DNA from: an uncultured Sphingorhabdus sp.
GTDB taxonomy: Bacteria; Pseudomonadota; Alphaproteobacteria; Sphingomonadales; Sphingomonadaceae
NCBI GenBank assembly: GCA_964591835.1
Contig: CAZQBS010000008.1
Coordinates: 1,959 to 65,958 of the forward strand
Length of the DNA stretch: 64,000 bases
Direction of reading: 5' to 3'
The position numbers and the translations under genes were made by a program. Positions 7,037 through 58,461 of this stretch are shown here, one piece after another; position 1 is the stretch's first letter; each line of letters starts with the position of its first letter. The notes below the pieces were generated by a model. It saw nothing but the letters and a program-made list of their open reading frames with translations, was not told the DNA's origin and ran no database searches.

Positions 7037-7842
7037 GCCAGCAACTTCGCGCGTAATTCGTCTTCGCCATCATCGGGCGGCGCGACACCGAAGAACAGTT
7101 CAAAGGCAATAGCCGCCTGTCCGACAAGCATTTCGAGGCCGTCAACGGATTCGAGGCCGCGCGCGCGCGCGGCCCTAAGTAGCCCTGTCTCTATCGGTGC
7201 ATAAACAAGATCGTAAACCAAGGCATCCTCCGGCAATGGCGACAGGTCGAGCCGCAGCGGGTCTTGGCCCTTCATCCCAAGCGGGCTGGCATTGACCAGC
7301 AACGCGGCCTCCGGCAACCGCGCGTCGAACGGAAGCACGCGGCCCTTCAAACCGAAATGCGCGAGCAGGCCTGCACCGCGCAGCGCGTTGCGCGCCATTA
7401 TGACGACCTCCCCGACATCGGCCTGCGCAAGTGCGAACAGCACCGCGCGCGCCGCGCCACCCGACCCGACGACGATTGCGGTTTCACCGACCAGAGGCAG
7501 ATCGGCAATCGGTCCGTAAAAGCCACCGGCATCGCTGTTTGTGCCGGCGAGCTGACCTGCCTTATCGCGAAAGACCACGTTGATCGCACCAATCGAGTGA
7601 CGGACATCGCCCGGATCGGCGACATGATCGAGTGCCGCAATCTTGTGTGGAATGGTGATGTTGCACCCGCGCCATGCCGGGTCTTCGCGGCGCCCGGCGA
7701 AATAATCGGCAAGCTTCTCCGGCGCGATGTCGCAAGCTTGATAGCGCGCGACGATGCCCAGCCGGTCGAGCCAGAACTGGTGGATGAGGGGTGATTTGCT
7801 GTGGCCGATCGGGTGCCCGATTACGTCTGCATAAGGGATCAT
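7033..7842 (-). CDS. aroE: Shikimate dehydrogenase
   Basis: [36 protein letters not shown] and GLEMLVGQA. Confidence 0.93.
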
Positions 7843-8432
7843 ATCTGCAGCATCCCGCGAACCCGCAAATAGTCAAGCACCGGTAGCAGTGGCAGGCCGA
7901 TGATCGTGAACTGGCTTCCGGATACAGCGGAAAACAGCTGCGCGCCTTCGGCCTCGATGCGGTAACAACCAACACAGTGCCGGATCTGCTCCCAATAGCG
8001 CGCAACATATTTTTCGATAAAGTCCTCGCTCAGTACCCGCATCGTCATTTGCGCGGTATCGACAGTCCGCCACGCCGGCATACCGGCCTCACAAATCACG
8101 GCGGCGCTCACCAGCCGGTGAGTCGATCCCGACAGCATTTCCAGATGGGCCATCGCATCATCTGGGCCTTTCGGTTTGTCCAGAAACTTGCGGTCGGCGG
8201 TTACCAGAATCTGGTCGCAACCCAGCACGAGGTCGCCTGGAAATTTGCGCGAAATTTTGGCGGCCTTCGCCTCGGCCAGCGCATCGGCAATGTCGCGGGG
8301 CGTGGCCCCTTCACCGACGAGGCTATTTTTGATGCTATCCTCGTCAACCGTCGGCCGATGCGCTTCGAGCTCCACCCCAGCCGCACGCAGCATCGCCAGC
8401 CGACCTGCGCTCCCGGAAGCAAGGATGATCAT
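7839..8432 (-). CDS. maf: Maf-family nucleoside triphosphate pyrophosphatase
   Basis: IILASGSAGR, LAEAKA, LVLGCDQ, LDKP and VGCYRIE...FTIIGLPL. Confidence 0.9.
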   Translation of the reverse strand: MIILASGSAGRLAMLRAAGVELEAHRPTVDEDSIKNSLVGEGATPRDIADALAEAKAAKISRKFPGDLVLGCDQILVTADRKFLDKPKGPDDAMAHLEMLSGSTHRLVSAAVICEAGMPAWRTVDTAQMTMRVLSEDFIEKYVARYWEQIRHCVGCYRIEAEGAQLFSAVSGSQFTIIGLPLLPVLDYLRVRGMLQI

Positions 8433-17579: not shown

Positions 17580-18217
17580 CCGAAGGCGAAGCGCAGGCAT
17601 GGCTGCAGTCTCGTTTCGATGTTTCACGTGAAACAGGTGAGCGGATAGAGACCTTCATCGTATATCTCCTGCGCGAAGCGGCAAGCCAGAACTTGATTTC
17701 CGCTTCAACACTGGGCCAGATATGGAGTCGCCATATCGTCGATAGCGCGCAGCTGCTGAAACTGGTGCCGCCGCAAATGACCGACGGCGAATGGCTGGAT
17801 TTGGGGTCGGGGGCGGGGTTTCCCGGGATCATCATTGCGCTGTTAAGTGATTTCAAAGTCACATTGGTCGAATCGCGGAACAGGCGGATCGACTATTTGC
17901 AGCGTGCTGTGGCTATGCTTGGCCTTGAGGATCGTGTGACGGTGGCGGGAATGCCGTTGGAGCGCCTCGAAACTGCCCCATTTTCGGTCATCTCCGCCCG
18001 TGCCTTCGCGCCATTGCCGCGCTTGTTCGCGCTTGCTGCGCGATTTTCCACAGATAAGACAATCTGGCTGTTACCAAAGGGTCGAAATGCGGATAAGGAA
18101 TGGCAAGAGGTTCAACCGGCCTGGACCGGAGATTTTAACATCGAACCCAGCGTAACCGACGCCGAATCGGGAATATTGGTCGGACATCTGTCCGCAACGA
18201 GGCAAAAAGCGCGATGA
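17576..18217 (+). CDS. rsmG: 16S rRNA m7G527 methyltransferase RsmG (GidB)
   Basis: [31 protein letters not shown] and LLPKG. Confidence 0.95.
17620..17635. promoter_or_regulatory. Perfect parS site inside rsmG
   Basis: TGTTTCACGTGAAACA, encoding DVSRET. Confidence 0.92.
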
Positions 18218-18993
18218 TTCGTATTGCCATAGCAAATCAGAAAGGCGGGGTAGGCAAAACCACGACCGCGATTAACCTCGCGACCGCGCTTGCCGCCAGC
18301 GGCTGGCGCTGTTTGCTGATCGACCTGGACCCGCAGGGTAACGCGTCGACGGGACTCGGCCTCAAGCAGGTTGACCGCGTGCACAGCAGCTACGATTTGC
18401 TGCTCGGCGATGCTTCGTTGAGCGATGCCGCAATCCCGACGCTAATTCCCGGCCTCGATATCATCCCCGCTACGGTAGATCTGTCGGGGGCCGAGGTCGA
18501 GCTGGTTGAATTCGAGGACCGCACCCACCGCTTGCAGGTGGCGTTCGCTAAATCGACGCGCGATTGGGACATTTGTCTGATCGATTGCCCGCCTTCTCTG
18601 GGGCTGCTGACAATCAATTCGATGATCGCGGTCGATTCGGTGCTGGTGCCCTTGCAGTGCGAATTCTTTGCGCTTGAGGGATTAAGCCAGTTACTACAGA
18701 CAGTTGAGCGCATCCAGAAACGCTTCAATCCAAACCTTTCGATCATGGGTGTGGCGCTTACGATGTTCGACCGGCGCAACCGGTTGACTGACCAAGTTGC
18801 CGATGATGTGCGTTCCTGTCTTGGCAATCTTGTGTTCGAAACGGTGATCCCGCGCAACGTTCGGCTTTCCGAAGCACCAAGCCACGGGCTGCCCGCCTTG
18901 GTCTACGACCACAAATGCAGTGGTTCGGAGGCCTATATCAAGCTCGCGCGCGAATTGATCGGTCGATTACCCGCCAAAGAACTCGCCGCATGA
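18214..18993 (+). CDS. parA: Chromosome partitioning ATPase ParA
   Basis: ANQKGGVGKTTT, DLDPQGNAS, IDCPPSLG and IPRNVRLSEAPSHG. Confidence 0.96.
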   Translation: MIRIAIANQKGGVGKTTTAINLATALAASGWRCLLIDLDPQGNASTGLGLKQVDRVHSSYDLLLGDASLSDAAIPTLIPGLDIIPATVDLSGAEVELVEFEDRTHRLQVAFAKSTRDWDICLIDCPPSLGLLTINSMIAVDSVLVPLQCEFFALEGLSQLLQTVERIQKRFNPNLSIMGVALTMFDRRNRLTDQVADDVRSCLGNLVFETVIPRNVRLSEAPSHGLPALVYDHKCSGSEAYIKLARELIGRLPAKELAA

Positions 18994-19922
18994 CGCCGCC
19001 CGACGAATCGGTGGAAAAGTCGCCTCTGCGCAAGAAAATGGGGCTTGGCCGCGGACTCGATGCGCTGCTGGGTGAGGCGCTTCGCGGCGAAGTCGCGCCG
19101 CAGCCTGCAAGTTTCGCAGGCAGCCAAAGCGGACAAGGCGTCGCGACACTGCCGATTGCCGACATCCACCCCAATCCCGACCAGCCGCGTCGCCATTTTG
19201 CCGAAGAGAAACTGGCCGAACTTGCGGCGAGCATATCGAGGCACGGCGTCATCCAGCCGATTGTCGTCCGCCCGCATAACGGCGCCTATCAGATCGTTGC
19301 AGGCGAACGACGCTGGCGTGCGGCGCAACGCGCGCAAATCCACGATATTCCTGCGATTATTCGCAGTTTCGACGATGCCGAAACGCTGGAAATAGCCTTG
19401 CTCGAGAATATCCAGCGGCAGGATCTGAACCCGATCGAAGAAGCGGAGGCTTACAGGAAGCTGACCGAGATGTTCGGGCACAGCGCACTGGCGCTTGCCG
19501 AGCTGGTCCACAAATCGCGCAGCCATGTTGCCAACATGATGCGGCTTCTGGAATTGCCGCCCGCGATTCGCGAACTGGTGATCGAGGAAAAATTGACCAT
19601 GGGTCATGCCCGCGCGCTTCTGGGCAGCGATGACGCAGTGCGGCTGGCGATGGTCGTTATCAAACAAGGGCTGTCGGTCAGGGCGACCGAGGCGCTGGTC
19701 AGGAAATCGCGCGCGCCGTCGGCCGGGGGGAAAGGTGCGCGGCAGGACAGTCCGGCCAATGCTGATATTCGTGCAGTCGAAACGCATCTGGGTGACCTTC
19801 TGGGGCTGAAAGTTAGCATCAACCAGAGAAATGCAACCGGGGCTGGCGCAGTCACTTTCGAATATGGCAGCCTCGATCAGCTCGACATGCTTTGCCAGCG
19901 ACTGACCGGCGAAAAATTTTAA
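18990..19922 (+). CDS. parB: Chromosome partitioning protein ParB
   Basis: GLGRGLDALL, NPDQPRR, IVAGERRWRAA and ENIQRQDLNPIEEA. Confidence 0.96.
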   Translation: MTPPDESVEKSPLRKKMGLGRGLDALLGEALRGEVAPQPASFAGSQSGQGVATLPIADIHPNPDQPRRHFAEEKLAELAASISRHGVIQPIVVRPHNGAYQIVAGERRWRAAQRAQIHDIPAIIRSFDDAETLEIALLENIQRQDLNPIEEAEAYRKLTEMFGHSALALAELVHKSRSHVANMMRLLELPPAIRELVIEEKLTMGHARALLGSDDAVRLAMVVIKQGLSVRATEALVRKSRAPSAGGKGARQDSPANADIRAVETHLGDLLGLKVSINQRNATGAGAVTFEYGSLDQLDMLCQRLTGEKF

Positions 19923-20058
19923 AGTCTCTCGGATTTTTATCGCGGCAAAGGTTCACCGGTTAACCTTTCCCGTTGGCAGTGCAGTTTATAACACATTGAA
20001 ATATATAGAGTGTGGAAAATTTAACCACGGCTGTTACCGCTTTCGACAGGCAGCCCCG

Positions 20059-20066
20059 TTAACCAT
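20059..20066 (+). promoter_or_regulatory. CtrA half-site-like motif upstream of the DUF4402 subunit gene
   Basis: TTAACCAT at 20059; related TTAACCAC at 20021 and TTAACCTT at 19960 in the same AT-rich intergenic region. Confidence 0.4.
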
Positions 20067-20159
20067 CCCGAAAAGCTAAACCTTATGATTCGCTGTGCAT
20101 AAGCGATGATGAATGCAGTGGGGCATTCCAATCTGCTTTTGTCATGAAGGACCAGAATT

Positions 20160-20648
20160 ATGTTGAATAAGAAAATTGCTCTGCTGGGCGCGGCCGTCGC
20201 TGCTCTGGCATCGACCGGCGCCAATGCCGCAACGCAAACCGCAACTGCGGAAGTCGATATCATCGCTGCTGTTACCTTGACGCAGGATCTCGGGCTCGAC
20301 TTTGGCGTTGTTGCATCGAGCGCCGCTGCCGGCACCGTTACCCTGCCGACCGGATCGGACACACGTACATGCTCGGCTTCAGTGACTTGCGTCGGTACCG
20401 CACAGCGCGGCCAATTTACCGTAAGCAATGCAGCCAGCGGCTACAACGTTGCCATCACCGTTCCGGCATCGACATCGCTCATCGGCCCGGGCACCGCGAT
20501 GAACCTGTCGCTGGTTCCTTCGATCACTGGCTTCACCTCGACCGGTGCAGCGGTTGTGTTCAACGTCGGCGGCACATTGTCGGTTGGCGCCAACCAGGTC
20601 GCTGGCACTTATACCGGCACCTATAACGTTTCGGCCGACTATCAATAA
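20160..20648 (+). CDS. DUF4402-family secreted protein, probable fimbrial subunit
   Basis: Sec signal (…TGANA|A), LDFG motif, one Cys pair, C-terminal AGTYTGTYNVSADYQ with penultimate Tyr; RBS GAAGGA. Confidence 0.7.
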   Translation: MLNKKIALLGAAVAALASTGANAATQTATAEVDIIAAVTLTQDLGLDFGVVASSAAAGTVTLPTGSDTRTCSASVTCVGTAQRGQFTVSNAASGYNVAITVPASTSLIGPGTAMNLSLVPSITGFTSTGAAVVFNVGGTLSVGANQVAGTYTGTYNVSADYQ

Positions 20649-20685
20649 GCCGATCTGCGCCTAACCGGCGCGATACGAGACCGTT

Positions 20686-20719
20686 AAACCCCCGAAGGTG
20701 TCAAGCTTTCGGGGGTTTT
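20686..20719 (+). terminator. Intrinsic terminator after the subunit gene
   Basis: AAACCCCCGAA...TTCGGGGGTTTT hairpin followed by a U-run. Confidence 0.75.
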
Positions 20720-20728
20720 CTCGTGCCG

Positions 20729-20747
20729 TTAGCCGGTTGGTAACCAT
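20729..20747 (+). promoter_or_regulatory. Degenerate CtrA-like site upstream of the chaperone gene
   Basis: TTAG-ccggttg-GTAA-CCAT, two mismatches to TTAA-N7-TTAA. Confidence 0.35.
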
Positions 20748-20820
20748 ATTCTGCCACGGTGCAGTGGTGGACCAGTGCGGCTTTTACAGCCGTGCGCCTA
20801 ATATGTGGATGGGAATATCG

Positions 20821-21666
20821 ATGCGCAAACTGCTTGCAAAAGCTTGGCCGAACTCTGTCGGCCGGATGGCTATGGCTACGACCATATTGGCGGCAATGCC
20901 CCTCATGTCGGCGCAGGCCGCCGGCGACCTCTTGATCGCCCCAACGCGGATCGTGCTCGATGGCCGTCGCGGCACCGAGGTCATCCTGAACAATATCGGC
21001 AATGAGGAAGCGACCTACCGGATCACGCTCGAGCTTCGCCGGATGAACGACGAGGGTCGACTCGAGGACGTCGATACGGCCCGGGCAAACCCCAAGGAAA
21101 AGGCGGCGCTCGAAGTTATCCGCTACGCGCCTCGCCGCGTTACATTGCCCCCGAACCAGCCGCAGTCTATCCGAATCGGCCTGCAACCCATGGATTTGCT
21201 GCCTGACGGCGAATATCGCGCACACATGCTGTTCCGCGCCATTCCAAAGGCTCCGGCAGCAGGCACGGCGCAGGAGGCGGGCGGCGGGGTAAAAATCCAG
21301 CTCATTCCGATTTACGGTATCAGCATCCCGGTGATCGTCCGAAAAGGCAATCTGGAGGCGACGGCCGCACTGACCAATGTCCGTGTGGGCAGAGATAATG
21401 AAGGTCAGACGCTGGAATTCGATATGAGCCGGAAGGGCGATAAATCGGTGTTTGGCGAAATTCATGTGACCAAGCCCGGGCTGTCCGAGCCGATTGCGGT
21501 GGCGAAGGGCATTGCCATTTATCCCGAAATCGCCAGCCGGGGCGTATCGTTACCGCTGGCGCCCGAGATTGCGGCCAAGCTGCACGGCGAGGTGGTGGTT
21601 TCCTATTACGAAGCACCCGAAGCCGGTGGCGGGCTGATTAGCCAAGTCCGCTCGGTCCTGCCGTGA
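20821..21666 (+). CDS. PapD-like periplasmic fimbrial chaperone
   Basis: Signal peptide, LLIAPTRIVL, YAPRRVTLPPNQPQSIRI, GEYRAHMLFRAIP and YGISIPVIVR, the characteristic chaperone strand pattern. Confidence 0.72.
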   Translation: MRKLLAKAWPNSVGRMAMATTILAAMPLMSAQAAGDLLIAPTRIVLDGRRGTEVILNNIGNEEATYRITLELRRMNDEGRLEDVDTARANPKEKAALEVIRYAPRRVTLPPNQPQSIRIGLQPMDLLPDGEYRAHMLFRAIPKAPAAGTAQEAGGGVKIQLIPIYGISIPVIVRKGNLEATAALTNVRVGRDNEGQTLEFDMSRKGDKSVFGEIHVTKPGLSEPIAVAKGIAIYPEIASRGVSLPLAPEIAAKLHGEVVVSYYEAPEAGGGLISQVRSVLP

Positions 21667-21698
21667 ACTGAACGGGTTCGGGCCGGCCAGGGCCTGAC

Positions 21699-24398
21699 AT
21701 GCGCAAACTCCTCCATAAAGCCTGTAAGGCAATAGCGGTATTGGCCGTGGCGGCGGGGATCATGACGATCCCGGTCGCTTCGGCTTATGCTGCGCCGTGG
21801 CAGGCCAACGAAGACGATGCCTTGCTTTTCGATGTTCGAGTCGGCCAATGGCGTGTCGGAGACGGCGTTCGCGGCTATCAGACCGATAGTGGCGTGTGCG
21901 TCGATCTGGCCGATATTATTATCGCATTCGATTTACCCGTGCGGCTCGACAAGAAGTCGCGCCGCGCAACTGGCTGGTTGTTCGAAGAAAGCCGGACATT
22001 CACCCTCGACCGCGAAGAAAATATAGTACAAATCATGAACAAAAGTCATGCGGTCGGTCTTGGCGATATCCGCGATGTTCCAGAAGGCTGGTGTGTGGAT
22101 ACCACGAAGCTGGCGCAGTGGCTGAATATCGAGATCAACACGGACCTGTCGAACGCGCTGCTCATCATCAAGGCCGACCGCAAGCTGCCGTTTGAGCTGG
22201 CCGAAGAACGCAAGGCGCGGGTGGGCAAGTTCCGGCCTATGGCGCAATTCGACCTGAAGAGCCTGCCGCAGGCGAAAGATCCCTATAAATTCCTTCGTAC
22301 GCCTTCAATTGACGTCGTGGCGTCAATGGGCGTCAGCCGCGACAAGCGTATCGGTAACCGCTTCGATGCGCGCTACGAGATTTACGCCAGTGGCGAGATT
22401 GCCGCGGCTTCGTTCGATGCGCGGCTGTCGTCTGATGAACGCGGCGTTCCCGAACGCCTGCGTTTGCGGGGCTACAAGACCGATCCCGATGGCGGCTTGC
22501 TCGGGCCGTTGAACGCGACGCATTTTGCGGTCGGCGATGTCTCCACCAATGCGACACCGCTGGGTGCGCAAACCACTGTCGGGCGCGGTGGCTTTGTCAC
22601 CAACCGGCCATTGAACCGGACATCCAGCTTTGATCGCACCACATTCAGGGGCGAGCTGCCTGACGGCTGGGATGCCGAACTGTTCCGCAACGACCAGCTG
22701 ATCGGCTATGCCCAAAGCCGCGGCGACGGGCGATATGAATTTCTCGATGTTGCTTTGCTCTACGGCCAAAACCGGTTCGAGGTTGTCCTTTACGGTCCGC
22801 AGGGTCAAATCCGGCGCAATGTGAAGATGATCCCGGTCGGCCTCGATTCGATCCCGCCGCGCGAAATCTATTATTGGGCAGCAGTGCAGGATGCCGGACG
22901 CGACCTGATCAATCTGGATGGCGTCGAGCCGTCCGACTATCTCGGACAGCGCGGCGGTTTCGGGCTGGAACGCGGAATTGACGCTAGGACGTCAGTGGCG
23001 GGGTCTTGGTTCACCTCGATGGTGCGCGGGCGGCGGCAAAATTATCTCGAAGCCTCGGTTCGCAGAGCCATCGGGCCAGCATTGATCGAACTGGCGACGG
23101 CGGCCAATCTGTCGGGTGGCTACGCCTTGCGCGGACAGATGCTGGCGCAGGTTGGCGAAACGCTGGTCAGCGGCGAGAGCGCATGGCTGATGGGCGGCTA
23201 TCAGAGCGAACGTTACGAACGCGATCTTCGTCGCCTCAATAGCCTTTCGGTCGATCACAGTTTCAAGCTCGGGCGGCAATATCTGCCGGTCCGCGCCGAA
23301 GTCCGCTACAGCGAACGCACTGACGGCAGCAGCAGGTTGGAAATTAATTCACGATTATCATTTAATATCAAACAGATAAATACAAGCGCTGAACTGGAGT
23401 GGACAAAAGACGATAATCGCTTCGGAATCGATCCGGCATCGCGGCTCGATGCGTCGCTCAGACTGTCGGGCCGGGTGGGCGGATTGCGACTGCGCGGAGA
23501 GGCGGTCTTCGGGCTGACTGGCGACAGCGGTTTCCGCGAATCGAAGATTACCGGCGAGTGGCGCGCGGGCGAACGTTCGGATTGGCGGGTCGAGGCAGGA
23601 TATTCGGCCGGCGACAGGCGCGGCCGATTGGCTGTCGGTCACACCAGACGCTTCAAACAGTTCGCGCTGACCGGTCAGATCGAGGCCGCGAGCGACGGTT
23701 CGGTCGCGGCGACACTTGCGCTTGCATTCAGCCTCGGCCCCAATCCGCACAACGGCGGCATTCGCGTGGCATCGGCGAAGCTGGCATCCTCCGGGCAGGC
23801 CTTTGCGATCGTCTTTCAGGACGAGAATGCCGACGGCATCCGCCAAGCCAGCGAACCGGTGCAAAAAGCGGTCGAACTGACCGCCGGTCTATCCGCACGC
23901 GGCGACCCGACCGATGCCTTGGGCCGCACCGTTATCGACGGGCTGCAACCCTATGAACCCGTTCTCATCGGGATCGACGCATCGAGCCTGCCCGATCCGT
24001 TCGTCCAGCCATCAACCAGCGGCGTTGTCGTCACCCCGCGCCCCGGAGTGCCCGTGACAATCGAGTTGCCTTTGGTCGCGGCTGGCGAAATCTCGGGCAA
24101 TCTGCAACGCGAAGGCGGCAAAATGTTGAGCGGCGTCGATATCGAGCTGCTCGACAAGAGCGGACGCGTCGTCAGGACGACACGGTCGGAATATGACGGC
24201 TTCTTCCTGTTCGAATTTGTGCCTTATGGTAGCTACACGCTTCGAGTCGCCGCAGTGGCAGCGGCTGTTGTCGGCGTCGAAACACCACTCCCGGGTCTCG
24301 CCCAACTTGGCAAAGCTAAAGGCATGGTCGATCTGGGCATTGTCACCGCCAAAGCCGCGCAACGGATTGCCAGTTCGGCGCAACCGCAAGGCCCGTAG
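21699..24398 (+). CDS. Outer-membrane usher-like protein with C-terminal carboxypeptidase-regulatory-like domains
   Basis: 899 aa with signal peptide, many amphipathic beta-strands, a plug-like segment GELPDGWDAELFRN...GQNRFEVVLYGPQG and C-terminal TTRSEYDGFFLFEFVPYGSY; follows the chaperone gene. Confidence 0.65.
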   Translation: MRKLLHKACKAIAVLAVAAGIMTIPVASAYAAPWQANEDDALLFDVRVGQWRVGDGVRGYQTDSGVCVDLADIIIAFDLPVRLDKKSRRATGWLFEESRTFTLDREENIVQIMNKSHAVGLGDIRDVPEGWCVDTTKLAQWLNIEINTDLSNALLIIKADRKLPFELAEERKARVGKFRPMAQFDLKSLPQAKDPYKFLRTPSIDVVASMGVSRDKRIGNRFDARYEIYASGEIAAASFDARLSSDERGVPERLRLRGYKTDPDGGLLGPLNATHFAVGDVSTNATPLGAQTTVGRGGFVTNRPLNRTSSFDRTTFRGELPDGWDAELFRNDQLIGYAQSRGDGRYEFLDVALLYGQNRFEVVLYGPQGQIRRNVKMIPVGLDSIPPREIYYWAAVQDAGRDLINLDGVEPSDYLGQRGGFGLERGIDARTSVAGSWFTSMVRGRRQNYLEASVRRAIGPALIELATAANLSGGYALRGQMLAQVGETLVSGESAWLMGGYQSERYERDLRRLNSLSVDHSFKLGRQYLPVRAEVRYSERTDGSSRLEINSRLSFNIKQINTSAELEWTKDDNRFGIDPASRLDASLRLSGRVGGLRLRGEAVFGLTGDSGFRESKITGEWRAGERSDWRVEAGYSAGDRRGRLAVGHTRRFKQFALTGQIEAASDGSVAATLALAFSLGPNPHNGGIRVASAKLASSGQAFAIVFQDENADGIRQASEPVQKAVELTAGLSARGDPTDALGRTVIDGLQPYEPVLIGIDASSLPDPFVQPSTSGVVVTPRPGVPVTIELPLVAAGEISGNLQREGGKMLSGVDIELLDKSGRVVRTTRSEYDGFFLFEFVPYGSYTLRVAAVAAAVVGVETPLPGLAQLGKAKGMVDLGIVTAKAAQRIASSAQPQGP

Positions 24399-24420
24399 TC
24401 GAAAAATCTGCATCCGTTGC

Positions 24421-24447
24421 TGTAACCTTTGCGTTGCTGTTGCCGAA
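24421..24447 (+). promoter_or_regulatory. ECF16/SigF-type promoter
   Basis: TGTAACC-N16-CGAA, 42 nt before the cytochrome b ATG; matches the Caulobacter SigF consensus as I recall it. Confidence 0.65.
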
Positions 24448-24489
24448 CCGTCTGCGGCGGCATAGTCTGCTGCGTAAAGGGAGCAGTGC

Positions 24490-25332
24490 ATGGAGCAAAC
24501 CGATCTCAAACCCGGCGATATCATCAAACGCCACCGGCTTTCGACTCGAATCTGGCACTGGATCAACGCTGTGACGTTGCTCGTCTTGTTGATGAGCGGT
24601 CTAATGATTTTCAATGCACATCCAAGGCTTTACTGGGGCCAGTACGGCGCGAACGACGATTATGCGTGGTTGGTTATCGACGATGCCAAGAATACCGGCT
24701 TTGTCGAAATCTCCGGTGCCCGGGTGACAACGACGGGTGTGTTGGGTGTGTGGACCGACGCCGAAGGCACGATCAGGAAGCGCGCGTTTCCGTATTGGGC
24801 GACGATCCCGTCGAGCTATGATTTGCAGGCGGCACGGCGCTGGCATCTGACCTTTGCCTGGGTGCTTTCGCTGGCTTTGCTGTTCTACATAATGCGGTCG
24901 TTGTGGAACGGTCATGTCCGGCGCGACCTGCACATCCGCAAGGCTGAATGGTCGCTGCGGTATATCTGGCATGATATCAAGGAACATGCGCGGCTGCGTT
25001 TTCCTACAGGCGCGGCTGCAATGAGCTATACAATATTACAAAAAATCAGTTACATAGCCGTTATTTTCATATTGTTACCGCTGATAATCTTTACCGGCCT
25101 GACGATGTCGCCGGCAATGAACGCGGCGTGGCCTTGGCTGCTCGATATCTTCGGGGGTAGGCAATCAGCACGGTCACTTCACTTTATTGTCGCCTTTGCA
25201 CTGGTCGCGTTTTTCTTGGTGCATATCACCATGGTGGTGCTCGCCGGGCCGATCAACGAGCTTCGCTCGATGATCACGGGTCGTTACCGGCTACCCGGCA
25301 AAGTCGAAGCTGTTGAAGGAGAACCGGCATGA
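24490..25332 (+). CDS. Cytochrome b/b6-domain membrane protein
   Basis: RIWHWINA, RRWHLTFAW, LQKISY and ARSLHFI heme-ligand His positions; four TM segments. Confidence 0.85.
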   Translation: MEQTDLKPGDIIKRHRLSTRIWHWINAVTLLVLLMSGLMIFNAHPRLYWGQYGANDDYAWLVIDDAKNTGFVEISGARVTTTGVLGVWTDAEGTIRKRAFPYWATIPSSYDLQAARRWHLTFAWVLSLALLFYIMRSLWNGHVRRDLHIRKAEWSLRYIWHDIKEHARLRFPTGAAAMSYTILQKISYIAVIFILLPLIIFTGLTMSPAMNAAWPWLLDIFGGRQSARSLHFIVAFALVAFFLVHITMVVLAGPINELRSMITGRYRLPGKVEAVEGEPA

Positions 25333-26102
25333 CCGACAATCCGATCATTATGCCACGCCGCAAGTTTTTGACAGGCGCGGCGTTGGGCGGAAGCGGACTG
25401 TTGCTTTCTGGATGCGATGCCCTGACCGAAAACCCTGGTTTCCGCTCGGTGCTACGCAGCGGCGAGGTGCTGAACAAAACGGCGCAGCGTTTAATCTCCG
25501 ACCGTGCGGCATTGGCCCCCGAATTTTCGGCGAACGATATCTCGCCGACTTTCAAACCAAATGGTTCAATCAGCGGTGCGACGCCCGAATATGCAGCCCA
25601 CGTCGTCGACAAATTTGAGCGCTGGCGGTTGCGGATTGACGGCATGGTGCAACGACCGTTGTCGCTCTCGCTTGCTCAATTGACGACAATGCCTTCGCGC
25701 GAGCAAATTACCCGCCACGACTGCGTCGAGGGCTGGAGCGCGATCGGCAAATGGCGCGGCACCCCGCTCGGGATGCTTTTGAAGCAAGCAGGGTTAGCGA
25801 CCAAGGCGCGCTATATCGTGTTTCACTGTGCCGACAGCTTCGGTGCCGATCCCTATTATGAATCGATCGACCTGATCGACGCCTTCCATCCGCAAACGAT
25901 CATGGCGTGGAGCCTCAACAACACGCTTTTGCCCGTGCCGAATGGCGCGCCGCTGCGCCTCCGCGTCGAACGACAATTGGGCTACAAACACGCCAAATAT
26001 GTGATGCGCGCCGAGGCGACCGACAGCCTTGCCAAATTCTACGGCGGCAAGGGCGGTTACTGGGAAGATCAGGTCGATTACGACTGGTACGCGGGGATTT
26101 AG
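25329..26102 (+). CDS. Molybdopterin-dependent oxidoreductase, sulfite-oxidase fold, Tat-exported lipoprotein
   Basis: Tat motif PRRKFL, lipobox LSGC, HDCVEGWS with the Mo-ligating Cys, NGAPLRLRV and GYKHAKY; overlaps the cytochrome b gene by 4 nt. Confidence 0.85.
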   Translation: MTDNPIIMPRRKFLTGAALGGSGLLLSGCDALTENPGFRSVLRSGEVLNKTAQRLISDRAALAPEFSANDISPTFKPNGSISGATPEYAAHVVDKFERWRLRIDGMVQRPLSLSLAQLTTMPSREQITRHDCVEGWSAIGKWRGTPLGMLLKQAGLATKARYIVFHCADSFGADPYYESIDLIDAFHPQTIMAWSLNNTLLPVPNGAPLRLRVERQLGYKHAKYVMRAEATDSLAKFYGGKGGYWEDQVDYDWYAGI

Positions 26103-26160
26103 GCTTGCGATTCTGTCAGGTGAATGGTCAAAGCCTGTCTTCTTTCAGGGAGAGACGTAA

Positions 26161-27270
26161 ATGAAGACCCGCGCTGCCGTTGCCTTTGAAGCGAAGAAGC
26201 CGCTCGAGATTGTCGAGCTGGACCTTGAAGGACCGAAAGCGGGTGAAGTGCTGGTCGAGATCATGGCGACAGGCATCTGCCACACCGATGCCTACACGCT
26301 CGACGGCTTCGACAGCGAGGGAATTTTCCCGAGTGTGCTCGGCCATGAAGGCGCAGGCATCGTCCGCGAAGTTGGCGATGGCGTAACGTCGGTGAAGCCC
26401 GGCGATCATGTCATCCCGCTTTACACCCCCGAATGTCGCCAGTGCAAAAGCTGTCTGTCGGGCAAGACCAACCTGTGCACTGCGATCCGCGCGACTCAAG
26501 GCAAAGGACTGATGCCCGATGGCACCTCGCGCTTTTCATACAAGGGCCAGACGATCTTTCACTATATGGGCTGCTCGACTTTCTCCAACTTCACCGTTCT
26601 CCCCGAAATCGCCGTCGCCAAAATCCGCGAGGATGCGCCCTTTAACAGCGCCTGCTATATCGGTTGCGGCGTGACGACTGGCGTCGGTGCCGTCACCAAC
26701 ACTGCGAAGGTCCAGCCTGGCGACAATGTCATTATCTTCGGACTGGGCGGTATTGGCTTGAACGTGCTGCAAGGTGCCAAGATGGCCGGTGCGAACATGA
26801 TCGTCGGCGTCGACATCAATCCCGACCGCGAGGCGTGGGGCATGAAGTTCGGGATGACGCATTTCGTGAATCCGAAGGATGTCGACGGAGATATTGTTGC
26901 GCATTTGGTCGCACTCACCGACGGCGGCGCAGAATACACCTTCGATTGCACGGGGAACACCACCGTGATGCGCCAGGCGCTCGAGGCCTGCCATCGTGGC
27001 TGGGGCACGTCGATCATTATAGGTGTGGCCGAGGCGGGCAAGGAAATCAGCACGCGGCCGTTCCAGCTCGTGACCGGTCGCAACTGGCGCGGTACCGCTT
27101 TTGGCGGCGCTAAAGGGCGGACCGATGTGCCTAAAATCGTCGATCTTTACATGGATGGCACAATCCAGATCGACCCAATGATTACACATGTTCTGACGTT
27201 GGACGAGATCAACAAGGGCTTCGACCTGATGCACGCAGGCGAGAGCATAAGGAGCGTTGTTGTCTATTGA
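26161..27270 (+). CDS. frmA: S-(hydroxymethyl)glutathione dehydrogenase / class III alcohol dehydrogenase
   Basis: [31 protein letters not shown] and PFQLVTGR. Confidence 0.95.
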
Positions 27271-57930: not shown

Positions 57931-58461
57931 ATGGCAGGACCAGGTCATATGCTGCGCGTCGTGGGGGCGTTGGGGCTTTTGCCGTTGCTGGTGGCAGCGG
58001 GAGACGACGTGTGCCGGTTGTGCAGCGCCTCCACGACGTCAGAACAGGGAACAATCCGACGCGAAATCCCGCTGACCATAGAAATCACTACAAAACTCGA
58101 CTTCAGTCGCGCGGCTTTGTCGGGCGCTGGCGGCGGCGCAATCGAACTTGATCCGCAGGGCGGCGGCAGGCGTGTCGATGGTGGCCTCATCGATCTCGGC
58201 GGGTCCGCTTTAGCCGGAACCGCCGTGGTCAGGGGCGAACCGGGTCGGACGGTGCGTATCGACATGCCAGTCACTGCGCGTATGACCTCGTCGAACGGCG
58301 GCGTGATCGAAATTGCCGGGATGCGCACCAATATCGGCGCTAATGCCCGTCTGGACAGCGCCGGACGGCTGGAATTTGCGTTTGGCGGTAGGTTGCTGGT
58401 TAAAAGCAATGTCTTCGGCACATTCCGCGCGCGAATACCCATTACTGCCCAATATGAGTGA
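57931..58461 (+). CDS. Orphan DUF4402-family secreted protein
   Basis: Signal peptide, CRLC motif, LDFS motif, FGGRL and C-terminal GTFRARIPITAQYE with penultimate Tyr; alternative start at 57949. Confidence 0.68.
   Translation: MAGPGHMLRVVGALGLLPLLVAAGDDVCRLCSASTTSEQGTIRREIPLTIEITTKLDFSRAALSGAGGGAIELDPQGGGRRVDGGLIDLGGSALAGTAVVRGEPGRTVRIDMPVTARMTSSNGGVIEIAGMRTNIGANARLDSAGRLEFAFGGRLLVKSNVFGTFRARIPITAQYE

Follow-up and report, generated by a model that had tools for sequence, protein, structure and literature searches.

A predicted chaperone-usher-type assembly cluster with a DUF4402 subunit in Sphingorhabdus, and its relation to the known chaperone-usher classes

Background

Chaperone-usher systems have been described in a classical class (FimA/FimC/FimD; PapA/PapD/PapC), an alternative class (EcpA/EcpB/EcpC; CFA/I and CS1) and an archaic class (Csu of Acinetobacter and CupE of Pseudomonas), and both censuses and classifications of them generally start from recognisable usher sequences. 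The ushers and chaperones of the archaic class are recognised by the Pfam models PF00577 and PF00345. The EcpC usher of Escherichia coli K-12, on the other hand, has no match to Pfam Usher at E <= 1 and EcpB reaches PapD_N at only E 0.017 (ecpC and ecpB at L001:1308-4527), so that Pfam-based screens under-detect a class that is already known. The subject of this paper is a cluster of three genes at positions 20160-24398 of a 64,000-nucleotide stretch of DNA, here called the window, from contig CAZQBS010000008.1 of an uncultured Sphingorhabdus sp. Unlike those of the archaic class, its usher and chaperone are not recognised by the two models, and the cluster probably encodes a chaperone-usher-type assembly machine of a lineage that lies outside the current class-defining family models.

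The open reading frames (ORFs) are co-oriented on the forward strand, at 20160-20648, 20821-21666 and 21699-24398, and encode products of 162 aa (of the DUF4402 family), 281 aa (chaperone-like) and 899 aa (an outer-membrane protein). A Sec-type signal peptide can be read from the sequence of each product, with the cleavage contexts ...STGANA/ATQ, ...MSAQA/AGD and ...ASAYA/APW respectively. This layout agrees with a preliminary description of the same DNA, which had reported three co-oriented signal-peptide genes and proposed a non-canonical chaperone-usher-like system built on the DUF4402 subunit; the proposal has held up, with an usher fold, a chaperone profile and a pilin-like subunit.

All structural statements below derive from AlphaFold2 (AF2) models of the subunit and the usher. 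Direct sequence comparisons were made with proteins of E. coli K-12, and the archaic class was compared by way of the Pfam model SCPU, the subunit C-terminus and descriptions of the class. Against single E. coli sequences (FimC, EcpB, FimD, EcpC) hhalign had too little power, and informative comparisons required small alignments of K-12 paralogues as targets.

The predicted usher

By predicted fold and architecture, which are those of FimD and PapC, the 899-aa protein (21699-24398) is an usher. The AF2 model was built from an alignment of 91 representatives at 25-47% identity and reached a pLDDT of 92.2 and a pTM of 0.80. Secondary structure assignment with DSSP gave an N-terminal alpha/beta domain (~37-160) and a linker helix (164-178), followed by a barrel of 24 strands, six at 199-301 and a further 18, strands 7-24, at 390-681. 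The plug (~305-385, with a six-strand sandwich at 313-380) is inserted between strands 6 and 7, and the chain ends in two C-terminal sandwich domains, CTD1 (~695-790) and CTD2 (~791-885), of which the second is prealbumin/CarboxypepD_reg-like. Every part that had been anticipated from the sequence is present in the model, namely the barrel, the plug-like segment and the beta-sandwich domains at the C-terminus. When the model was searched against the PDB with Foldseek, ranks 1-18 were without exception FimD or PapC structures, either full length or the translocation domain (E 5e-30 to 8e-14), and rank 19 covered the C-terminal SdrD-like domain only. A profile of the usher family aligned by hhalign with four K-12 ushers at E 5.4e-5, with 476 collinear columns running over plug, barrel and CTD1.

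Public annotation gives a different picture, as homologues are named 'carboxypeptidase regulatory-like', 'collagen binding domain-containing' or 'hypothetical'. The first two names would fit an unrelated transporter (TonB-dependent-like, LptD-like or a porin) that carries a carboxypeptidase-regulatory-like domain and has unrelated periplasmic proteins for neighbours. Pfam too sees only the C-terminal domain (CarboxypepD_reg/SdrD_B at 798-854), sequence and profile searches of the PDB with this protein returned only the SdrD-like C-terminal domain, and Occ porins, LptD and TonB-dependent receptors do appear lower in the Foldseek list. These non-usher barrels begin only at E 3.5e-7, however, with the TonB-dependent receptors at ~1e-5, as against 5e-30 for the ushers. 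A TonB-dependent receptor has a 22-strand barrel with an N-terminal plug, whereas the modelled barrel is of 24 strands, its plug follows strand 6 and precedes strand 7, in mid-barrel, and the terminal domains are like those of ushers. The strict linkage of the three genes across bacterial classes also points to a single machine, and an unrelated transporter can be considered hardly credible.

The chaperone

The product of the middle gene (20821-21666) is a PapD-like chaperone with two immunoglobulin (Ig)-like domains, as judged from profile comparison and from Pfam matches of its family members. The 281-aa reading, which starts at ATG 20821, is sensible because the longer alternative, from GTG 20698, would begin inside the terminator described below. 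An alignment of 20 members of the chaperone family matched one of five K-12 chaperones (FimC, YadV, SfmC, ElfD and YcbF) with an hhalign probability of 90% and E 1.7e-6 over 190 columns covering both domains, against E 0.31 for the reversed control. Chaperone-like genes found beside distant usher homologues belong to the family and match the window chaperone at 66-148 bits; two of them, with 26.0 and 23.2 bits, score above the gathering threshold of Pfam PapD_N, which is 23. Weak PapD_N matches were found in 5 of 28 Sphingomonadales chaperones, and automated pipelines label the protein 'PapD-like'.

Residues P41, R43, P104, R133, P170, R174, R204 and Y234 are among those that do not vary over the diverse family. 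In the hhalign alignment R43 occupies the position of Arg8 in FimC. R133 aligns with Arg89 of EcpB in a weak local alignment (E 0.008, probability 5%), and of the two residues R204 and Y234, both invariant in domain 2, Y234 meets Tyr169 of EcpB only in a low-confidence extension of it. According to Pakharukova et al. (PMC4654587), nothing characterises archaic and alternative chaperones better than the F1-strand Arg (Arg89 of CsuC and EcpB), which joins an Arg and a Tyr of domain 2 in holding the carboxylate of the subunit. R204 and Y234 are the candidate members of such a non-classical pair and, as far as these weak alignments can be read, classical and non-classical signatures seem to meet in the one chaperone.

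The DUF4402 subunit

The 162-aa protein (20160-20648), the putative major subunit, matches Pfam DUF4402 at E 1.2e-20. It comprises a signal peptide (1-23), an N-terminal extension of alternating pattern (~24-38) and an Ig-like body (39-161). In the AF2 model (pLDDT 89) the chain is an all-beta sandwich from residue 39 on, and the 15 residues that follow the signal peptide (24-38) have no strand assigned, in a monomer model that by its nature cannot show the loss of a strand. C71, C77, G149 and Y161 do not vary among 121 close homologues, and the alternating positions of the N-terminal segment (A28, A30, V32, I34 and V38) vary little or not at all; the cysteine pair, the alternating N-terminal strand pattern and the penultimate Tyr that had been picked out from the single sequence are thus conserved features.

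Gly149 and Tyr161 stand at -14 and -2 from the C-terminus, and a Gly at -14 with a penultimate Tyr is the classical pilin C-terminal motif recognised by PapD-like chaperones. The motif recurs, largely kept, across diverse distant DUF4402 proteins. The best local hhalign alignment of the subunit to 13 K-12 pilins was this C-terminal stretch, end to end with that of FimA, at an E of 0.004 that is not significant alone (reversed control 0.33). Almost all of the 45 best Foldseek matches in the PDB were chaperone-usher pilins, among them Caf1, CfaB, FimA, HdaB, CS17, CsuA/B, PapA, PapH, FimI and DraD, and a sequence search of the PDB with the single subunit gave no match. In modelled fold and C-terminal motif the subunit looks like the chaperone-usher pilins.

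Two links to known pilin families were tried and rejected. For a relation of DUF4402 to SCPU, suspected from a resemblance of motifs, no SCPU match was found in 16 diverse DUF4402 proteins even at E 5. A relation to MatB, raised by the JGI annotation of the subunit as 'Mat/Ecp fimbriae major subunit', was supported neither by Pfam scans (E 5) nor by hhalign against EcpA.

Leader and terminator

The ~100 nt 5' of the subunit ATG (20059-20159, forward strand) were found, across 10 loci, to be conserved far above the DNA further upstream. Among its elements are the motif TTAACC at 20059-20064, the palindrome CTTATG..CATAAG at 20082-20103, the hairpin GAATGC-AGTGGG-GCATTC at 20111-20128 and, as ribosome-binding site, AAGGA. 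The hairpin with the AGUGGG loop occurs in 53 of 74 loci, where the loop is kept over at least 15 different stems with pairing preserved, so that the stem covaries. The leader could be a regulatory or stabilising element of the 5' untranslated region, or an operator. An Rfam scan of the leader and terminator region returned only a His_leader match, at chance level.

Between the subunit gene and the assembly genes lies a putative intrinsic terminator or attenuator (20686-20722, forward strand), in which a G+C-rich 14-bp hairpin (20686-20718; fold z = -5.2) is followed by a T-rich tail. It was not listed by a simple terminator scan. A hairpin with a T-run was nevertheless found 3' of the subunit gene at 53 of 73 related loci, compared with 5 of 207 control coding pieces, and the terminator that had been proposed at this boundary is accordingly a conserved feature of the locus.

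A second DUF4402 gene

When the whole window was searched for further DUF4402, chaperone and usher genes, no additional chaperone or usher gene was found and the only other DUF4402 ORF was an unlinked one at 57931-58461 (forward strand; 176 aa over the whole ORF; Pfam E 5.2e-14). An exact-sequence look-up of its product gave no match. The GGACCAG ribosome-binding context that it shares with the major subunit gene sits after the first ATG of the ORF, within 57931-57965, and for this reason the real start is probably ATG 57949, giving a protein of 170 aa that begins MLRVVGALG. The TTAACC motif is also found 5' of this gene. In 13 loci of other Sphingomonadales genera (Chakrabartia, Aquisediminimonas and others) a homologue stands immediately upstream of the major subunit gene; the ancestral operon therefore probably had two subunit genes, with the 57931 gene as a part of the system. 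Its product is a candidate minor subunit. The preliminary description had looked to this gene for a tip component encoded away from the cluster. The link itself is borne out by the second DUF4402 domain and by the operon position of the homologue, but the product is single-domain and pilin-like, not a two-domain tip adhesin.

Proposed assembly and the nature of the product

Of the possible mechanisms the usual chaperone-usher cycle has the best support, and it would run as follows. The DUF4402 subunit would be exported by Sec and captured in the periplasm by the PapD-like chaperone, whose G1 strand (VKIQLIPIYGISIPVIV) would fill the groove left by a missing seventh strand, while the subunit C-terminus (Gly -14, Tyr -2) would be anchored in the interdomain cleft, with R43, R133, R204 and Y234 as candidate anchors. 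The complex would then dock on the usher N-terminal domain, and the N-terminal extension of an incoming subunit (A28-A30-V32-I34-A36-V38) would displace the chaperone strand by donor-strand exchange. The growing polymer would thread through the 24-strand barrel once the plug had moved out, with the two C-terminal domains holding the base of the fibre. The terminator would leave subunit transcript in excess of that of the assembly genes, and the unlinked 57931 gene may supply a minor subunit, e.g. an initiator, cap or terminator of the fibre. Polymerisation by donor-strand complementation and exchange, a surface location and a role in adhesion or biofilm formation may thus be supposed. That the product is a long pilus, and not a short or coat-like polymer, can be held with somewhat less confidence than the existence of the assembly machine.

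An usher-like pore and its chaperone might instead secrete DUF4402 proteins as monomers, or as material for nothing longer than a short cap or a surface coat. Such a product would suit a cluster that has single-domain subunits only and lacks an adhesin, and the peptidoglycan-binding SPOR domains tied to the usher in some distant systems are atypical of pili. The coat made by Caf1-type systems is capsule-like, and in Myxococcus an archaic chaperone-usher system deposits spore coat protein U. The Caf1-type coat is itself polymeric, however, being formed by donor-strand exchange, and two conserved features of the subunit, its N-terminal extension of alternating pattern and its Gly -14/Tyr -2 motif, are those that serve subunit-subunit polymerisation. 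A terminator that favours an excess of subunit fits a polymer as well, and a monomeric or coat-like product is held to be improbable.

A number of observations must be set against the assignment of the cluster to a chaperone-usher-type machine. None of the three window proteins reaches the Pfam cut-off of any chaperone-usher family, whether classical (Usher, PapD_N, Fimbrial), archaic (SCPU) or alternative (MatB, TcfC, CooC_C). The 899-aa protein scores 13.5 bits (E 0.032) against a Usher cut-off of 27.1, and among the diverse usher family only 1 of 46 members matches that model, at 0.006. The window chaperone has no significant match in Pfam, NCBIfam or the PDB, PapD_N not being listed, and the subunit has none to Pfam Fimbrial, SCPU or MatB. 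NCBIfam gave nothing useful for the three proteins, and no pilus protein was found in the PDB, either by searches with the single sequences or by profile searches with close-homologue or moderately diverse alignments. The reversed control for the usher profile gave E 0.0041, so that the true match is only ~80-fold better, a modest margin, and the Foldseek scores of the subunit are weak (best E 2e-3, TM 0.35-0.49). In the chaperone the classical Lys112 position is taken, in the hhalign alignment, by the invariant P170. A two-domain adhesin gene is not present. The only run found with an RNA label, a public one entered as 'METAGENOMIC RNA-Seq' (run X2), contains 84% of the sampled words of window 20000-24500, but from 18000 to 26500 its depth stays flat, at ~5x, across genes and intergenic stretches alike; the run therefore behaves like DNA and gives no expression readout. 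The failure of the classical models is no argument against the mechanism, because EcpC and EcpB are similarly invisible to them.

Distribution and genomic context

The order subunit-chaperone-usher was scored in 80 fetched Sphingomonadales loci wherever the contig was long enough to show it, and was kept in all of them. The nearest public relatives are metagenome-assembled genomes (MAGs) and isolates of Sphingorhabdus; among cultured species S. contaminans and S. profundilacus have the locus, and a near-identical organism is present in soil, groundwater, watershed, sediment and freshwater metagenomes. The module, of one to three DUF4402 genes with a chaperone and an usher, was also found in seven distant contexts, on a Polaromonas plasmid, on large Pseudoalteromonas replicons, in a Desulfobacterales MAG and on several metagenome contigs. 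The idea of an alphaproteobacterial pilus class, put forward in the preliminary description, has to be given up in view of these carriers, which include Beta- and Gammaproteobacteria. The usher family comprises 4650 clusters at 50% identity (E <= 0.001), with at least 599 matching stretches in species-representative genomes.

Some distant homologues of the usher carry SPOR peptidoglycan-binding domains as a fusion or have them as neighbours (L084:5887-9936, L090:3066-6836, L087:2308-2793 and 7610-8248), which suggests that the usher may be tethered to the cell wall in some lineages; to our knowledge such tethering through SPOR domains has not been described. Cu_amine_oxidN1-like N-terminal parts occur in some distant ushers (9 of 46 family members). 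In some of the distant modules the DUF4402 genes are separated from the chaperone gene by extra genes of 135-245 aa (L083:4205-4936, reverse strand; L092:5300-6037 and L086:2928-3335, forward strand), which have no Pfam match but end like subunits (...VTYN, ...IIYN, ...VAFN; ...V.V.[YF]N). They are probably enlarged or diverged subunits and are possible adhesins of the DUF4402 system; the window carries none of them. On one metagenome contig a Tad/Flp pilus locus (TadE, two T2SSF genes and T2SSE; L088:10941-17282) directly adjoins the DUF4402 module.

In the window the cluster has mnmG, rsmG, parA and parB as its 5' neighbours and genes for cytochrome b561, a molybdopterin oxidoreductase and a Zn-dependent alcohol dehydrogenase on its 3' side. 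No adhesin-like gene is adjacent, as had been noted from the ORF listing. The position next to parB, to which attention had also been drawn, is real here and recurs in Sphingorhabdus and Parasphingorhabdus, but it is specific to that lineage and is not found in Chakrabartia, Aquisediminimonas or other genera. The cytochrome b561 and molybdopterin oxidoreductase genes (24490-26102), an MsrQ/MsrP-like pair directly 3' of the usher gene, follow it in many Sphingorhabdus loci but not in Parasphingorhabdus, and the pair is a conserved neighbour that is probably unrelated to the fibre system.

Among the papers that could be searched, there was none mentioning DUF4402, PF14352 or IPR025514, and none linking chaperone-usher systems with Sphingomonadaceae. 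To that extent the system is undescribed, as had been supposed, but automated annotation already hints at a fimbrial chaperone and subunit; the usher alone is wholly unrecognised by automated pipelines, while the chaperone and the subunit have already been given fimbrial labels. Should the proposed mechanism be right, the picture so far lacks a surface-fibre system that is common in freshwater, groundwater, soil and marine bacteria. For DUF4402 the proposal provides a testable function.

Comparison with known chaperone-usher systems

With the minimal F1 antigen system of Yersinia pestis the cluster shares a composition of one subunit, a chaperone and an usher without a specialised tip adhesin, and in structure the subunit comes closest to Caf1 (3dos, E 2e-3). 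Caf1M and Caf1A are classical proteins (gamma3, FGL) with normal Pfam matches, however, and the identity of the subunit to Caf1 is ~16%.

With the classical systems the cluster has several features in common. The modelled usher follows their layout, from the N-terminal domain through a 24-strand barrel, plugged between strands 6 and 7, to CTD1 and CTD2; the two-domain chaperone aligns over both domains and has an Arg at the Arg8 position; the subunit has the pilin C-terminus; and the major subunit gene comes first and is followed by a terminator. In contrast, the window proteins stay below the cut-offs of Usher (PF00577), PapD_N/PapD_C and Fimbrial (PF00419), CTD2 of the usher is prealbumin/CarboxypepD_reg-like, the chaperone has Pro170 at the Lys112 position together with a putative F1-strand Arg of the kind typical of non-classical chaperones, and there are neither two-domain lectin adhesins nor adaptor subunits.

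The resemblances to the alternative and archaic classes raise the question of whether the system is a very diverged branch inside one of these non-classical classes (archaic sigma or alternative alpha), and so of an ordinary kind. Like the proteins of the cluster, those of the alternative class escape PF00577 and PapD_N, as the accepted member EcpC and its partner EcpB illustrate, and EcpC too has a CarboxypepD_reg-like C-terminal domain. The usher family profile is collinear with EcpC over 208 columns, although weakly (hhalign, E 0.0019). The invariant R133, aligned with EcpB Arg89, and the invariant Arg and Tyr of domain 2 speak for the same placement, as does the Mat/Ecp label given by JGI, even if the match of the chaperone to EcpB is not significant alone. 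On the other side, the subunit belongs to DUF4402 and not to MatB or a CblA-like family, the TcfC and CooC_C domains found in EcpC are missing from the usher, and the cluster has neither a large EcpD-like adhesin nor another chaperone. The Arg at the Arg8 position is also kept, and the chaperone profile fits the classical chaperones (E 1.7e-6) better than EcpB (E 0.008).

As regards the archaic systems, the wide environmental distribution, the small simple operons and the single-domain subunits of thin-fibre type are held in common, a non-classical carboxylate-anchor pattern is plausible in the window chaperone, and CsuA/B is among the fold matches of the subunit (7zl4, 6fq0). No match of the window subunit to SCPU (PF05229) was found, not even a weak one, the subunit family matching neither SCPU nor MatB at E 5. 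DUF4402 subunits end in an aromatic residue followed by one other, like classical pilins and unlike CsuA/B, which ends on its aromatic residue, and a CsuE-like two-domain tip adhesin is lacking. Membership of a non-classical class, as a deep branch, is rated as a serious though less probable alternative.

The most far-reaching placement, given somewhat less than even confidence, is that of a fourth deep chaperone-usher lineage (the 'DUF4402 type') beside the classical, alternative and archaic ones. Its marks might be a separate pilin family, a chaperone that joins an Arg at the Arg8 position to a non-classical two-domain carboxylate anchor, and an usher that escapes the models and is linked to SPOR domains in some lineages. 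If this is true, the lineage is widespread in environmental Proteobacteria and Desulfobacterota and has been invisible to usher-based censuses. The machine itself is a recognisable variant of the well-understood pathway that the Fim, Pap, Ecp, Csu and Caf1 systems represent, and not a new principle.

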